From NCBI GenBank assembly GCA_037130925.1, contig JBAXSC010000002.1:25185-89184 (forward strand): a DNA stretch of 64,000 nucleotides, in the 5' to 3' direction. The translations under genes were made by a program, and so were the position numbers. The stretch is from Candidatus Nomurabacteria bacterium (GTDB taxonomy: Bacteria > Patescibacteriota > Minisyncoccia > Phycocordibacterales > UBA5272). Shown here in pieces: positions 28,193-36,882 of this stretch. How positions within the stretch are numbered: position 1 is the first letter of the stretch; each line of letters starts with the position of its first letter. Below the pieces are notes generated by a model. The model saw nothing but the letters and a program-made list of their open reading frames with translations, was not told where the DNA came from and made no database searches.

Positions 28193-28581
28193 GGGAGTGT
28201 CAGGATTCGACACCTAGTTATTTGTAAATGTGGTTTCCGATAATGAAAGTAAATCGTAAAAATCTTTCGCACACGCTGCAAACAATACAGCAAAGGCAAT
28301 CCCTTCACCATTCGTGGCGTTTGGATTCGCTCCAGTAGCCGCTTAATTTTTAAGCCGCTTTGGTGTCACCTCTCACTACATGACGTGAGAGATCTGATAA
28401 TATAGAGAACATGTGTAGAAAATTTTCTTTTTGTATTTCTGAAAATTTTTGAAATGTAAAAATACTAAGCTAAACAATTTTTCTTGTTTTATATGTTTAG
28501 ACGAAAATTAAAAAATGAGATATGAAACTAGAGTCATTTATGAGAACTATCTGCACGGGGGTTCAACTCCCCCCACTTCCA
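28193..28581 (+). ncRNA. ssrA: tmRNA (SsrA)
   Basis: The 5' end GGGAGTG pairs with the 3' end CACTTCC, giving a G3:U wobble (Ala identity), followed by discriminator A. T-arm: GGGGGTTCAACTCCCCC. The 5' end GGGAGTGTCAGGATTCGACA is typical. Tag ORF at 28275/28278..28346: (A)ANNTAKAIPSPFVAFGFAPVAA-stop. Promoter TTGATA-17-TAAAAT lies upstream. CCA is not encoded. Confidence 0.92.
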
Positions 28582-28588
28582 CAAAAGT

Positions 28589-32409: not shown

Positions 32410-33189
32410 CTAACTTCTCCATGGATAAGGTTTTAATACTGAAACTATTCTTTTTGAAAAATTTGGTGTTAATACATTAAAAAATACATACCTCTCAGAA
32501 TATTCCAAAGGAAGAAGTAAAAAATTACCAGGTTTTTCTAAAAATCCTAAAGAATCCTCCATGAGACATCTGCCCTCTTCTGCTTCGCATGAAATTTTAA
32601 ACATGAGCCCTTCTCTAAAATTTGTTTTTATTAAATCAAAATCCGGAGAATTTTCTGTTCTTTTAACTAAGTCATCCATAGCAATATCAAAAGCTTGTTC
32701 AGGAATTAAAGAATCAAAATTCTCTAAAACTTCCTTATTAGCTTTTGGTCTGGACATTAAGACGTCCTCTTCCCAATTTAATAAAAGTAATTCTTTTATA
32801 CCGACACTTAAATCTTTTAACATATTTATATACTTTTTAGATATTTCTTTATCTACAATTCCCTTTTCTATAAAAGAGTCATTGAAAGTAATAAACCAAT
32901 TAAGACTTACATTGTTAGTTTTAAAAGCTTTAATTATTTTTGGAATCTGAAAATCAAAAAGATCTAATTCTGTCTTAAGAGGTTCAAATTTATTTCCTTG
33001 ATTCTTAAAACGATCTTCGAGACCTTTTGTTAAACACCATTGCGTTAAGATTTCTACAGGTTTACCATAGAGAATACATTCATCAATATAAGATTCTACC
33101 CATTCATCAATTTTTTGATTATTTTGACGAATTAGTTTTGCTTCTTGTCTCATAAAAGACATTAAATTTCTAGTTACGATCTGTTTCAT
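32410..33189 (-). CDS. Hypothetical protein (259 aa)
   Basis: The track ORF (to 33492) runs through tRNA-His. I trimmed it to the ATG at 33189, which is preceded by a strong RBS (AAAAGGAGGTCTAAAATG). I recognise no family. Confidence 0.6.
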   Translation of the reverse strand: MKQIVTRNLMSFMRQEAKLIRQNNQKIDEWVESYIDECILYGKPVEILTQWCLTKGLEDRFKNQGNKFEPLKTELDLFDFQIPKIIKAFKTNNVSLNWFITFNDSFIEKGIVDKEISKKYINMLKDLSVGIKELLLLNWEEDVLMSRPKANKEVLENFDSLIPEQAFDIAMDDLVKRTENSPDFDLIKTNFREGLMFKISCEAEEGRCLMEDSLGFLEKPGNFLLLPLEYSERYVFFNVLTPNFSKRIVSVLKPYPWRS

Positions 33190-33341
33190 TTTAGACCTCC
33201 TTTTTTGTTTTAGTTTATAATATTTTTTTAAAAGAACAATTTTAATCAACCTAATAAATTTATTAAGTCGATTAATAATATTCTCTTTTTTATTTCTTTT
33301 TTTATAACTCATATATTTCTTAAGTAAATAAATTTTACTTG

Positions 33342-33414
33342 GGTCCATGAAGGGAATCGAACCCTCAACCACTCGCTTCACAAACGAGTGCTCTACCTTT
33401 GAGCTACATGAACC
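33342..33414 (-). tRNA. tRNA-His (anticodon GTG) with genomically encoded G-1
   Basis: The minus strand reads G-GTTCATG-TA-GCTC-AAAGGTA-GAGC-A-CTCGT-TTGTGAA-GCGAG-TGGTT-GAGGG-TTCGATT-CCCTT-CATGGAC-C. This gives a full cloverleaf with G-1 opposite C73. The 3' CCA is not encoded (CAA follows). Confidence 0.9.
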
Positions 33415-33722
33415 ATACAAAGGAGGAAGGGTAAAAATGTGTTTACCCATACCTCCTAATGAACTCCCGAAAGAACGTTTTTTAAATTTCATAAAAAAAT
33501 ATTTATTAAATTAAAATAAAACCCTCCAAATAAGGAGGGGTTTATTTTTCATAAATAAAATATTTATTAAAAGTTATCAAAAACAAAACTCTCCTTATTT
33601 AAAGAAGTGATATGATGGGCAACTGTTGAGATTGTCATCAAATTATTATTTTGTTTTTGATATACAGATTTCATGTCTTTATATTTTTTGAATATATCAC
33701 ACCAGATATATAAATGCAAATT

Positions 33723-34331
33723 TTATACTTTCGCTTTCAATTCTTCTACCATGTTCACATCTCCCATTTCTCTTCTGTCTTTATTCTCTTTTACTAAAGT
33801 AATCAACTTTTCAATAAGTCTTTTAGGATTTGAATCGAAAATAACGTTAGGATTTGTACGGTTACTATTCCTTATAATATCGCGTATAACGGCGTCAGTT
33901 GGCCAAGGCCCCTCCAAAATACCAACAGGCATATTTGACTCAAAAGCCACTGTAAACTCGTGAATTGTGCCAATTCTACCACATCCGATGATCATAGCGT
34001 CAGAGCTCTTTGTAAGAACAATGTCTCTGATTGGGAAACCAAATCCAGTAAACACTATCACATCACAAGAGTCTAAAGGTAAAAGATAAAGATCTGTATG
34101 CTCTTTTTCATTTGCTGCAGGAGAAAATCCTAAAGAAAAAGGACCTTTCTCTTCTTTATATCCTTGTGTCGCAGCATGAGGGAATCCACTGGTTGCCCCT
34201 GTCGCTATCACACAATTTTGTCTCGCTATCTCACGACCAACTTCTTTTGATATATTCAAAGACTCTGGACCGCAATGTGCTACTTCTGCAGCCCCAGAAA
34301 CTGATATAACTATTTTCTTTTCATAATCCAT
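33723..34331 (-). CDS. LOG/SLOG-superfamily Rossmann-fold protein (TIGR00725-like)
   Basis: KIVISVSGAA...VGREIARQNCVIATGATSGFPHAATQGY...DAMIIGCGRIGTIHEF matches the TIGR00725/LOG pattern as I remember it. Confidence 0.55.
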   Translation of the reverse strand: MDYEKKIVISVSGAAEVAHCGPESLNISKEVGREIARQNCVIATGATSGFPHAATQGYKEEKGPFSLGFSPAANEKEHTDLYLLPLDSCDVIVFTGFGFPIRDIVLTKSSDAMIIGCGRIGTIHEFTVAFESNMPVGILEGPWPTDAVIRDIIRNSNRTNPNVIFDSNPKRLIEKLITLVKENKDRREMGDVNMVEELKAKV

Positions 34332-34364
34332 AAATGTTTTTATTTTTCTAAAATTATAACATGA

Positions 34365-35747
34365 CTAAATTTCTATATCTATAGCTTGTCCGAATTGAGG
34401 AACTTCAACTGGTAAATGATAAAATTCTACTAATCTTTGTGCTAAGAAAGTTTGAGATCTTGGCTCACCAAGAACAACAAAAGCTTTTTTAAGTGACTCA
34501 TGCATCTCAGCTGCAAATTCTTGCAATCCTGTAGAATCCTTATGTGCTGAGAATCCAGATATTTCTACAACTTCTGCATTAACTTGCACCCTCTCACCAC
34601 GAATATAAATTTCTTTCATACCATCTTGTAATTTTCTACCCATAGTCCCTGCCGCTTGATATCCTACTAATAACAAAGTACTTTTCGGATCAGGGAGATA
34701 TCTGGCTTCATGATGAACTATTCTTCCCCCATTACTCATTCCGGATCCAGCTAAAATAATTTTTGGATTTGGTGCAAAATTTATAGCTTTAGAATCTTCT
34801 GCTGTATTTGAAATCACGAGACCTGCAAAAGAAAAAATATCTTCACCTTTTTTTACAAGACTCTCAATATTTTCATTAAAATCTTTTTCATATTTTTTAT
34901 AAACTTTTGTAATATTTATTCCAAGTGGAGAATCTAAATATACAGGCACAAGTGGAATTTCTTTATGTTCAACCATTTCATTAAAAATGAAAATTAATTC
35001 TTGTGTTCTTTCAATAGAAAAAGCAGGTATCATCAATACTCCCCTTTTCGCAATAGTTTTTTTAATTGTATCTTTTAATATCTGAACTCTATCATTTACA
35101 TGATCATGATTTCTATCTCCATAAACACTTTCCATAATCAAATATGTCACACCTGGAACTTTCTCAGTATTCTTTAAAAGTGGAGATGGTGAATTACCAA
35201 GATCTCCAGTAAACATAATTCTTTCTCCTTTTATATCAAAGACGACCATACAACTTCCCAGAATATGCCCTGAATCAAAAAGAGTAACTTTTATTTCACC
35301 AATACTAGAATCTCCAGAATCGATAGAAAACGGAGCATGATATTTTAAAGTCTTCCAAAATGTCATCGCATGGTCTATATCTTCAATACTATAAATTGGA
35401 AGCAAGCCCTCCCTCTGTGCTTCTCTAGTCAAAATTCCAACAGAGTCACGCAAAACTAATTCTCCGATATCATGTGTCGCATCTGTAGAATAAATTGTCC
35501 CTTCAAATCCTTCTTTGGTTAATTTTGGAATTCTTCCAACATGATCCAAATGTCCGTGGGTAATAAAAAGAAAATCTATATTTTTAGGTGAATAAGAAAA
35601 ATTTTCTCTATTTTCATTTTCAGCAAGTTTCTCTCCTTGGAAGAGTCCACAGTCTATTAATATTTTTTTATTTCCAACTTCTAGTAAAAAATTCGATCCT
35701 GTCGCTGTACCAGCACCACCTGCAAAAGTTATTTTTATTTTAGACAT
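34365..35747 (-). CDS. MBL-fold beta-CASP family ribonuclease (CPSF/RNase J-related)
   Basis: 460 aa. ILIDCGLFQG, FITHGHLDHVGRIP (HxHxDH), later D/H motifs, and C-terminal GFSAHKD. A TGTTATAAT promoter lies at 35774..35782. Confidence 0.8.
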   Translation of the reverse strand: MSKIKITFAGGAGTATGSNFLLEVGNKKILIDCGLFQGEKLAENENRENFSYSPKNIDFLFITHGHLDHVGRIPKLTKEGFEGTIYSTDATHDIGELVLRDSVGILTREAQREGLLPIYSIEDIDHAMTFWKTLKYHAPFSIDSGDSSIGEIKVTLFDSGHILGSCMVVFDIKGERIMFTGDLGNSPSPLLKNTEKVPGVTYLIMESVYGDRNHDHVNDRVQILKDTIKKTIAKRGVLMIPAFSIERTQELIFIFNEMVEHKEIPLVPVYLDSPLGINITKVYKKYEKDFNENIESLVKKGEDIFSFAGLVISNTAEDSKAINFAPNPKIILAGSGMSNGGRIVHHEARYLPDPKSTLLLVGYQAAGTMGRKLQDGMKEIYIRGERVQVNAEVVEISGFSAHKDSTGLQEFAAEMHESLKKAFVVLGEPRSQTFLAQRLVEFYHLPVEVPQFGQAIDIEI

Positions 35748-35872
35748 AATAGATATTATAATTTTATATTCAAATTATAACATTTATAATATACATAAAT
35801 AGTTTTGAAAATTTTGTCGGGACCTTTTAGAGTTAAGAAATTTGAAAAAATATTTTTATATTTTAAATAAGG

Positions 35873-36046
35873 TAAAATAAAAACTCCACAAAATATTGTG
35901 AAGTTTTTATTAGGACACTTAATGCGTATCTACCTTTAATAAAATTATTAAAGTGGGTAGGTAACGGTCAAGCTCACAGGCATGACTACAATGCACCATG
36001 ACCCGAAAAGATACTTATGAAAGATAAATTAACATTAAGTATCCTG
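35873..36046 (-). ncRNA. Stand-alone structured small RNA of unknown class (~170 nt)
   Basis: Promoter TTGCAA (36074-79), a 16-nt spacer, then TAGAAT (36052-57). The predicted +1 falls at the first base of a 13-bp closing stem (36033-45 pairs with 35912-24). Nested helices lie inside. The terminal hairpin 35883-35904 is followed by UUUUUAUUUU. Two mismatches become G-U pairs only on the minus strand. Confidence 0.6.
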
Positions 36047-36162
36047 ATATAATTCTATTATTTCTATTATTTTTTGCAACTATTTACAAAAAATATTTTA
36101 ATAACTAAAAGACAGAATACATTTGAAAAATAAGGATGAAAAATTAAATCCTATCTGTGGAT

Positions 36163-36777
36163 TTATCCTACAAATCCATCAAGATCTAAATCGTAAAGCA
36201 TTTTTTCATTTATACTTTTCCAATTTATAATTTCTTCTTTATTAAACCAAACATTTATTTCTCTTTCAGCAGCTTCAGGACCGTCAGCAGGATCTGTACA
36301 GTGAATAAGATTTCTTACCGCACGTCCTCCATCAGTATCACAAAGCATATATGTTTCTAGACTATAATCCCCTCTGATTGTTCCTGTATCTGCAGTAGCC
36401 GGCTCAGTACTTCCTACTAATCTTTTTACAACAGCTTGAGCTTTATTTCCTTCTAACACTAAAACAACAACTGGTGAACATCTCATATATTCTACAAGAC
36501 CTCTCAAAATATCTTTTCCATATTCAAGAGCTGTTTTTTCAATAGGAAGACCTAACTCTTTTCTATTTTTAATAACATTGTTCTCGCCTTTACTTATCAT
36601 CCAAGCATCATCTTTATTATAATGTTTAAGACATAATTCCTCTGTTGGTAAAACCATTTTCATAGCAACAATTTTAAGTCCTATGTTCTCAAATTTTTTT
36701 ATTATCTCCCCCACTAGTCCACGCTGAATTGCGTCTGGCTTCAAAATAACAAATGTTTTTTCTTTTTTTGGATGCAT
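36163..36777 (-). CDS. ndk: Nucleoside-diphosphate kinase (long form with an internal insertion)
   Basis: KTFVILKPDAIQRGLVGEIIKKFE..GLKIVAMK...VVVLVLEG..AV...R.LVG.T.P..A..GTIRGDY...RNLIHCTD (active-site His). Start set to the ATG at 36777; the 26-codon upstream extension in the track is unlikely to be translated. Confidence 0.85.
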   Translation of the reverse strand: MHPKKEKTFVILKPDAIQRGLVGEIIKKFENIGLKIVAMKMVLPTEELCLKHYNKDDAWMISKGENNVIKNRKELGLPIEKTALEYGKDILRGLVEYMRCSPVVVLVLEGNKAQAVVKRLVGSTEPATADTGTIRGDYSLETYMLCDTDGGRAVRNLIHCTDPADGPEAAEREINVWFNKEEIINWKSINEKMLYDLDLDGFVG

Positions 36778-36882
36778 ATTTTTATTTATATTTAATAATT
36801 TATTAGTGACAAAATTATAGCAAATTAAGCATATTTCGTAAAATAACAAAACCACGATTTCTCGTGGTTTTGTTAAAGATTA

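Follow-up and report, generated by a model that had tools for sequence, protein, structure and literature searches.

The closest known counterparts of the element reported here are the 6S RNAs, in which a central bubble separates a closing stem from an apical stem that is interrupted by internal loops, and whose canonical length is approximately 200 nt (PMC8876501). During their release, the downstream helix is opened by the synthesis of product RNA, and its 3′ strand, once free, folds with the 3′ bubble into a hairpin, which has 9 bp in E. coli; also, or instead, the freed strand pairs with the distal 5′ bubble to give the "central bubble collapse helix" (B. subtilis, Aquifex) (PMC8876501). 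We analyzed a 64,000-nt stretch of DNA of a Candidatus Nomurabacteria bacterium (contig JBAXSC010000002.1, positions 25,185 to 89,184; the whole stretch is referred to below as the window), whose minus strand carries a small RNA (sRNA) gene between the genes encoding NDK and a beta-CASP hydrolase. The sRNA is a real, independently transcribed non-coding gene, conserved in Paceibacteria/Nomurabacteria, and the signal behind this observation is much stronger than expected by chance. The RNA has two mutually exclusive folds, both of them conserved and nearly isoenergetic. The best available explanation of these properties, which we put forward tentatively, is that the sRNA is a miniature 6S-type decoy of the housekeeping RNA polymerase holoenzyme.

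The core of the sRNA occupies positions 36045..35912 of the window (minus strand; 134 nt), and nucleotide n of the RNA corresponds to window position 36046-n. The promoter TTGCAA-16-TAGAAT, given for the minus strand in a preliminary description of this DNA, was located at 36079..36052, with the -35 hexamer TTGCAA at positions 36079-36074, a 16-nt spacer and the -10 hexamer TAGAAT at positions 36057-36052. From this arrangement, transcription is predicted to start at the A at position 36045. The same description placed the start at the first base of the closing helix (P1); this agrees with the spacing between the two elements, since 6 nt separate the -10 hexamer from P1. In all 16 copies of the RNA described below, a TAnnnT hexamer stands at the same distance (7 nt in one case) ahead of P1. 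The -35 sequence TTGCA(A/T) also recurs among the homologs.

The RNA ends, as had been proposed, in an intrinsic terminator (35911..35874, minus strand; AAUAAAAACUUCACAA-UAUU-UUGUGGAGUUUUUAUU, then UU), a 16-bp A/U-rich hairpin of -16.5 kcal/mol that starts three bases past the P1 helix and is followed by UUUUUAUUUU. This terminator is absent from the results of a consensus terminator scan because its stem contains too few G-C pairs. A hairpin with a U-run, whose stem sequences differ, directly follows P1 in 16 of the 16 copies. The G+C content of the core (0.36-0.38) is higher than that of the flanking DNA (0.15-0.20), in line with the earlier remark that this segment is richer in G+C than its surroundings. 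When folded together with the terminator, the 174-nt transcript reaches -58.3 kcal/mol, compared with -29 ± 3.6 kcal/mol for dinucleotide shuffles (z = -8.25), while the corresponding values for the opposite (plus) strand are -46.6 kcal/mol and z = -6.15. The two G-U pairs cited in favor of the minus strand were found, one in P1 and one in the terminator, and the strand assignment is borne out by the covariance model, which scores 120 bits on the minus strand vs 30.6 bits on the plus strand. No open reading frame (ORF) of at least 40 aa overlaps the sRNA region.

Loci carrying homologs were collected by protein-anchored searches with the beta-CASP gene and by one DNA-pattern scan of metagenome contigs. 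The protein scan of the genome collection gave two useful loci. The metagenome pattern (AATTTATCTTT..ATGNNNNATTG..CTNNCNAC) returned 32 stretches, three of which were true (L019, L036 and L043, the last equivalent to L006); a pattern scan of viral contigs returned 14 stretches, none of which fitted the covariance model. The search for homologs and covariation in related genomes, which had been recommended as a check, thus yielded a total of 16 copies of the RNA, i.e. 15 distinct sequences, which were aligned, and a 16th in locus L065; P1, the apical arm and both folds covary. The beta-CASP proteins linked to these copies share from 100% down to 55% identity, and the length of the RNA core ranges from 125 to 134 nt. 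Two covariance models, R1 and R2, score the window RNA at 120 and 123.5 bits, respectively.

The syntenic gene order is S6-SSB-S18-NDK-[RNA]-betaCASP-SLOG. In L008 an inserted Peripla_BP gene separates NDK from the RNA, and in five loci (L010, L046, L048, L049 and L065) a DUF2238 gene lies between the RNA and beta-CASP; in every one of these cases the RNA retains its position, promoter and terminator. Gene independence follows from the presence of an own promoter and terminator in every homolog, kept despite insertions on either side. The covariance model detected no second copy in the 64-kb window, and within the loci and the window, which were the sequences scanned, there is one copy per locus, with the exception of L046, which has two. 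The two copies of L046 are divergent and arranged in tandem (2103-2228 and 2386-2511), each with a TATAAT box and a terminator. In the same locus an unannotated gene of 324 aa on the opposite strand separates NDK from the RNA copies. In locus L065, S18 and NDK are separated by an insertion (609-869) that comprises a ParE-toxin-family gene together with two unannotated ORFs of small size, and a called 315-aa ORF lies between NDK and the RNA. In L047 and L064, which carry DUF2238-betaCASP and differ in gene order, no RNA was found in the available DNA upstream of the gene (approximately 1.3 kb and 3.5 kb, respectively) or elsewhere in the locus.

We also compared the sequence with catalogued RNA families. 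At the gathering score, Rfam 15 recognized only a tmRNA and one tRNA in the whole 64-kb window, and no 6S or 6S-Flavo. When the threshold was relaxed to E≤10 (segments of 451 nt and 181 nt, and the two L046 copies), no 6S, signal recognition particle (SRP) RNA or riboswitch was matched, and the sole matches were noise from the terminator hairpin (snoRNA, miRNA and the tail of DUF3800-I). SRP RNA (4.5S) was rejected on the grounds of this result and of the apical loop, which is YYGWGR and not GNRA; the motif that we take to be diagnostic is helix 8 with a GNRA tetraloop and conserved symmetric/asymmetric loops. A retron msr-msd was rejected because there is no reverse transcriptase gene, the neighbors being NDK, the beta-CASP MBL hydrolase and the SLOG protein, and a type I toxin was rejected on context and motifs. 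Literature searches covering Patescibacteria, CPR (candidate phyla radiation), Parcubacteria and Saccharibacteria turned up nothing relevant on 6S or other structured RNAs. Neither Rfam 15 nor the literature searched thus yielded a description of this RNA or of any 6S RNA in Patescibacteria, and the statement in the preliminary description that it is an independent structured sRNA gene of no catalogued class is upheld by its own promoter and terminator, the insertions, the tandem copies and the absence of an Rfam match.

The first structural element of the RNA is P1, formed by AGGAUACUUAAUG (36045-36033) and CAUUAAGUGUCCU (35924-35912). This 13-bp closing helix, which had been predicted from the single sequence, is well preserved: among the 15 aligned homologs, to which the following values refer, 95.4% of its cells are paired and both sides have changed in 10 of the 12 modelled pairs. 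The second is the apical arm (36004..35955, minus strand; nt 42-91), which consists of (i) P3, (ii) a 3x1 internal loop, (iii) P3a, (iv) an internal loop containing the conserved AUUG, (v) P3b and (vi) an apical loop. P3 (GGGU/ACCC) and P3a (GGUG/UACC in the window) are both 100% paired. P3a occurs in the covarying variants GGUG/UACC, GAGA/UCUC and GGAA/UUCC, and one of its pairs is G-C in eight sequences and A-U in seven. P3b (GUCAUGC/GCUUGAC) is 85.6% paired, with both-side changes in 7 of 7 pairs, and the apical loop, CUGUGA in the window RNA, has the family consensus YYGWGR. The arm also has the most conserved sequence of the RNA (GGGU-NAU-RRRR-UAUUG ... UU-YYYY-U-ACCCAC). P1 and the apical arm are thus strongly supported by covariation. 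Two pairings originally drawn in this region gave way to P3, P3a and P3b, namely the helix GGUCA/UGACC, which is paired in only 74.7% of cells among the homologs, and the hairpin GCAU/AUGC (51.7%).

Read along the RNA, its elements are arranged as P1-5′ / S / (C/G)AUAA / A / apical arm / AC / B / loop / B′ / GU / A′ / P1-3′. Segment S (AUUUAUCUUU; 36020..36029, minus strand; nt 17-26) forms the core of an 18-nt strand that had been regarded as single-stranded; this proved too simple, as S has a conserved partner, AAAGGUAGAU (35928-35937), and the resulting 10-bp helix is 95.3% paired, with both-side changes in 5 of 10 pairs. The structure that contains this helix, fold B, is a rod with a closing stem of approximately 23 bp (P1 and the S helix), a 15/17-nt bubble and an arm of approximately 15 bp with two internal loops. 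The 5′ strand of the bubble (36005..36019, minus strand; nt 27-41, 15 nt) opens with the (C/G)AUAA linker; the 3′ bubble region (35934..35954, minus strand), in which nt 92-108 (17 nt) are unpaired in fold B, begins with a nearly invariant A. Fold B has the minimum free energy (MFE) in 13 of the 15 homologs, and RNAalifold, applied unguided to an unbiased MAFFT alignment, selected the S helix and returned fold B as the consensus.

The alternative structure, fold A, is a three-way junction in which S is released and two other helices are formed. P4 (B:B′; 35953-35946 with 35941-35934, minus strand; CUUUAAUA / UAUUAAAG, 8 bp) is 87.6% paired and shows both-side changes in 5 of 7 pairs. P2 (A:A′) joins segment A (GUAUCU; 36014-36009, minus strand), which lies within the 5′ bubble strand, with A′ (AGAUAC); it includes both-side pair changes and is 69.9% paired in the alignment, a low value that is due to shifts in the register of P2 between lineages. 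When each sequence was folded separately with S blocked, P2 and P4 appeared in every homolog, 0-7 kcal/mol from the MFE. The two folds exclude each other in a shared 3′ segment (AAAGGUAGAUAC; 35926..35937, minus strand; nt 109-120), which serves as the partner of S in fold B or is split in fold A, AAAG going to P4 and AGAUAC to P2. The helix GUAUCU/AGAUAC of the preliminary description is supported as part of fold A, one of two alternative states. The same applies to the long hairpin reported there, of which the innermost 8 bp survive as P4, while its outer pairing CUAC/GUAG was discarded because it lacks any both-side pair change and clashes with the 100%-paired GGGU/ACCC.

Over the whole structure, fold B is 94.5% paired, with both-side changes in 27 of 37 pairs, and fold A is 89.9% paired, with such changes in 31 of 39 pairs. 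None of 500 shuffles used as a control reached the value of fold A or fold B, and structures slid by 1-3 columns gave 37-49% (40-48% for fold B). The idealised folds of the window RNA have computed energies of -37.5 kcal/mol (fold A) and -37.4 kcal/mol (fold B). Selection for both states is argued mainly from three-way covariation, in which changes in B′ are accompanied by changes in S as well as in B. The 3′ part of S, B and B′ read, respectively, CUUU, CUUU and AAAG in the group that includes the window, CUGG, CCUG and CAGG in L010 and the second L046 copy, and CUGC, CUUGG and CCAG in the first L046 copy, so that roughly three lineages contribute to this argument.

Two features that define RNAs of the 6S type are present, namely a rod-like fold with a central bubble, and a downstream helix whose 3′ strand has conserved alternative partners. 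Provided that S is copied into product RNA, B:B′ corresponds to the release hairpin and A:A′ to the collapse helix, within the same three-way topology. As a positive control, the same computation was applied to E. coli ssrS, the sequence of which was verified by a 100% match annotated as 6S RNA; with the product-RNA template blocked, which we take to be nt 25-44, it produced the 9-bp release hairpin. The small size of the RNA is no disqualification, since 78-nt truncated 6S-1 RNAs complete the 6S cycle in vitro (PMC8876501). A 6S-like RNA had already been suggested as one possibility; as a tentative explanation this suggestion holds, with the correction that the bubble is not the 18-nt strand and arises only once that strand is paired, in fold B.

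By analogy with these systems, we infer polymerase binding, product-RNA synthesis and the identity of the active state. According to this model, the RNA would sit in the active-site cleft of the housekeeping holoenzyme and mimic an open promoter. Fold B would be the binding state, in which P1 (13 bp) and the S helix (10 bp) would act as the "downstream duplex", adjoining a central bubble of 15 nt on its 5′ side and 17 nt on its 3′ side, and the P3-P3a-P3b arm would act as the "upstream duplex", with its internal loops and YGWG apical loop near the -35 position. The nearly invariant A just 3′ of P3 might then play the part of a -11-like base. Product RNA would be initiated in the 5′ half of the bubble, with the U of the conserved AUAA (U29, window position 36017) as the probable start, and copy S; the product predicted from the window RNA is 5′-AUGAAAGAUAAAUU. 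As judged from the modelled fold, the 15-nt template-side bubble, with a conserved U approximately 2 nt from the downstream helix, would fit an open complex. Product synthesis would unwind the S helix and free AAAGGUAGAUAC, which could pass into fold A by forming both the 8-bp hairpin in the 3′ bubble (an E. coli-type release hairpin) and the 6-bp helix with the distal 5′ bubble (a central-bubble-collapse helix of the B. subtilis/Aquifex type). Fold A would thereby collapse the promoter mimic, and the enzyme would be released.

Several observations weigh against this interpretation. The Rfam 6S models give no match to the 181-nt segment even at E≤10. The core has 134 nt (the transcript would reach approximately 170 nt only by keeping its terminator hairpin), compared with approximately 160-200 nt for 6S RNAs, and to our knowledge even the smallest of them exceed it by about 50 nt. 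The free RNA is almost isoenergetic between folds A and B, whereas in the same computation E. coli 6S RNA favors the open bubble by approximately 10 kcal/mol. The L048/L065 lineage has a weak S helix of 8 bp, including three G-U pairs, and its MFE structure is fold A. The putative product hybrid is A/U-rich, with -13 kcal/mol for a 14-mer. Sequence conservation peaks in the arm's internal loops, as would be expected just as well of a site dedicated to a protein or ligand, and the independent evolutionary events behind the three-way covariation are few, coming from roughly three lineages. Our search found no paper on 6S RNA in Patescibacteria, and the decoy role is suggested by analogy.

The distribution of conservation also underlies the first of the alternatives. 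It is possible, though on balance somewhat unlikely, that the RNA is not a polymerase decoy but a Patescibacteria-specific class of conformational switch, whose arm senses a protein or metabolite and which acts in trans as a riboswitch-like regulator. In the specific form of a new class of bistable sRNA, whose conserved arm binds a non-polymerase protein or small ligand and, on binding, shifts the balance of rod and three-way junction so that S/A become exposed or hidden, we consider this unlikely. The arm is most conserved in its internal and apical loops, a pattern typical of sites of specific recognition, near-isoenergetic states are expected of a sensor, and no known family matches the RNA; on the other hand, no candidate partner is consistently adjacent, as the neighbors differ by lineage, and a sensor by itself leaves unexplained both the open-promoter dimensions of the rod and the 6S release topology. 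Less probable, in our judgment, is a trans-acting base-pairing sRNA, in which UAUCUUU, present twice (in S and in the 5′ strand of P2) and free once in each fold, would be the seed and AAAGGUAGAU its mask. S and A are near-repeats in most homologs, the sequence of S is strongly conserved, and a stand-alone gene with a Rho-independent terminator is the usual organization of such sRNAs, but A covaries with A′ (GUAUCU, ACAUCU, ACACAUUU, UAUUUAC, GCAUC) and hence provides no fixed seed, and the elaborate conserved arm would not be needed for seed pairing. Matches to the 10-mer complementary to S (≤1 mismatch) number 73 in the window vs 52 expected, a mild excess that is uninformative in an A/T-rich genome; they resemble ordinary AAA/GAT/AAA-rich sequence.

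The remaining possibilities are contradicted by the organization of the loci or by the substitution pattern. The RNA lies on the same strand as, and upstream of, beta-CASP or DUF2238 in all loci and carries a terminator at its end, which might suggest that it is a leader or riboswitch acting in cis, with the terminator as the means of control over the beta-CASP ribonuclease gene (or DUF2238). Such a role is very improbable: the terminator is apart from the core, with no alternative pairing between them, the beta-CASP start codon is preceded by a conserved TGnTATAAT promoter located past the terminator, and the downstream gene differs by lineage. Moreover, the tandem copies of L046 are self-contained, each with a promoter and a terminator, and the DUF2238-betaCASP arrangement of L047 and L064 occurs without the RNA in the upstream distances given above. 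As for a small-protein gene, the conserved AUG at nt 47 opens a 26-codon ORF in the window RNA, but in the homologs the same AUG gives ORFs of 3 to 46 codons and is replaced by AUA in L049, which indicates that the RNA is non-coding; the substitutions keep base pairs, not codons. One copy per locus and no other in the 64-kb window argue that the element is not a dispersed repeat. Taken together, these observations effectively refute the small-ORF reading and that of a chance or repeat-derived hairpin.

The RNA resembles E. coli 6S RNA (ssrS, RF00013) in being a stand-alone sRNA gene of the abundant type, in its rod composed of a closing stem, a bubble and a looped apical stem, and in the refolding of the 3′ strand of the downstream helix with the 3′ bubble (8 bp here, 9 bp in E. 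coli). It differs from it in length (134-nt core vs approximately 184 nt), and in having no match to the Rfam model, nearly isoenergetic states and an A/U-rich template. With B. subtilis 6S-1 and Aquifex aeolicus 6S RNA it shares the potential for a collapse helix (here GUAUCU/AGAUAC) that encloses the 3′ bubble hairpin and the arm; however, the extended hairpin and the collapse helix occur here together and span the whole freed strand, and the RNA is far shorter and unrelated in sequence. The two copies in L046 recall the 6S-1/6S-2 paralogy of bacteria with two 6S RNAs (PMC8876501). The engineered 78-nt 6S78 is a further parallel for the reduced format, in that a bubble between two short arms suffices in vitro, but 6S78 is a laboratory truncation with approximately 10-fold lower affinity (PMC8876501), in contrast to the present natural conserved gene, which retains its conserved apical arm. 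Ms1 RNA of Actinobacteria is also reported to be a 6S-related, rod-like sRNA that binds RNA polymerase and is missed by 6S covariance models; it binds the core enzyme, and it is set beside the present RNA by description only. The length of Ms1 is approximately 300 nt.

Patescibacteria represent a large share of bacterial diversity and have tiny genomes, with almost no described regulatory RNAs. If the decoy model is true, the sRNA would be a natural 134-nt 6S-type RNA, well below the canonical length, that defines the minimal natural open-promoter mimic and unites in a single molecule the two known means of release, a hairpin as in E. coli and a collapse helix as in Bacillus; covariance-model surveys would then miss 6S RNA across a whole phylum. 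If it is not a 6S RNA, it is a well-supported new class of structured RNA with a conserved two-state switch, which is rare and, with a transcript of 134 nt, directly testable in vitro. Should the switch reading be true, these organisms would possess a riboswitch-like trans regulator.

The genes surrounding the sRNA in the window follow the syntenic order. Upstream of it lie NDK and, further upstream, the genes for ribosomal protein S18, SSB and S6; downstream are the 460-aa beta-CASP/MBL/RMMBL hydrolase and a SLOG-family protein. NCBI attributes a protein identical to this hydrolase to a Candidatus Nomurabacteria MAG. The statement that the beta-CASP gene has its own promoter was confirmed by a conserved extended -10 box, TGnTATAAT (35774-35782, minus strand), located 20-30 nt before the start codon, with no obvious -35 sequence. 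This box is kept at equivalent sites in L001, L002, L004, L006, L008, L044 and L045, and its position implies a very short 5′ untranslated region and an extended -10 style of promoter in these organisms. In the window (33723-35747, minus strand) and in all syntenic loci, the beta-CASP/RMMBL hydrolase almost always precedes a SLOG (LDcluster4) protein. Precomputed Pfam matches on the MBL domain of the hydrolase include Anti-Pycsar_Apyc1. RNase J1 of B. subtilis, also a beta-CASP enzyme, is reported to process 6S RNAs (PMC10578484); the adjacency of the sRNA and the beta-CASP gene may be a coincidence.

Three further features of the window were recorded. The NDK ORF (36163-36855, minus strand) encodes 230 aa from a GTG start, vs 203-219 aa for the NDK genes of homologous loci, and the true start is probably an internal ATG (MHPKKEK...). 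A tRNA-His gene (GUG; 33341-33413, minus strand) lies inside a mechanically listed 360-aa ORF (32410..33492, minus strand), for whose gene Pfam gave no match; the N-terminal part of this ORF is thus spurious, and the real gene must start further downstream. The tmRNA gene (28193-28584, plus strand; Rfam score of 88 bits) encodes, as predicted by ARAGORN, the tag peptide AANNTAKAIPSPFVAFGFAPVAA, and its tag-coding region contains an insertion of approximately 35 nt relative to the Rfam consensus.

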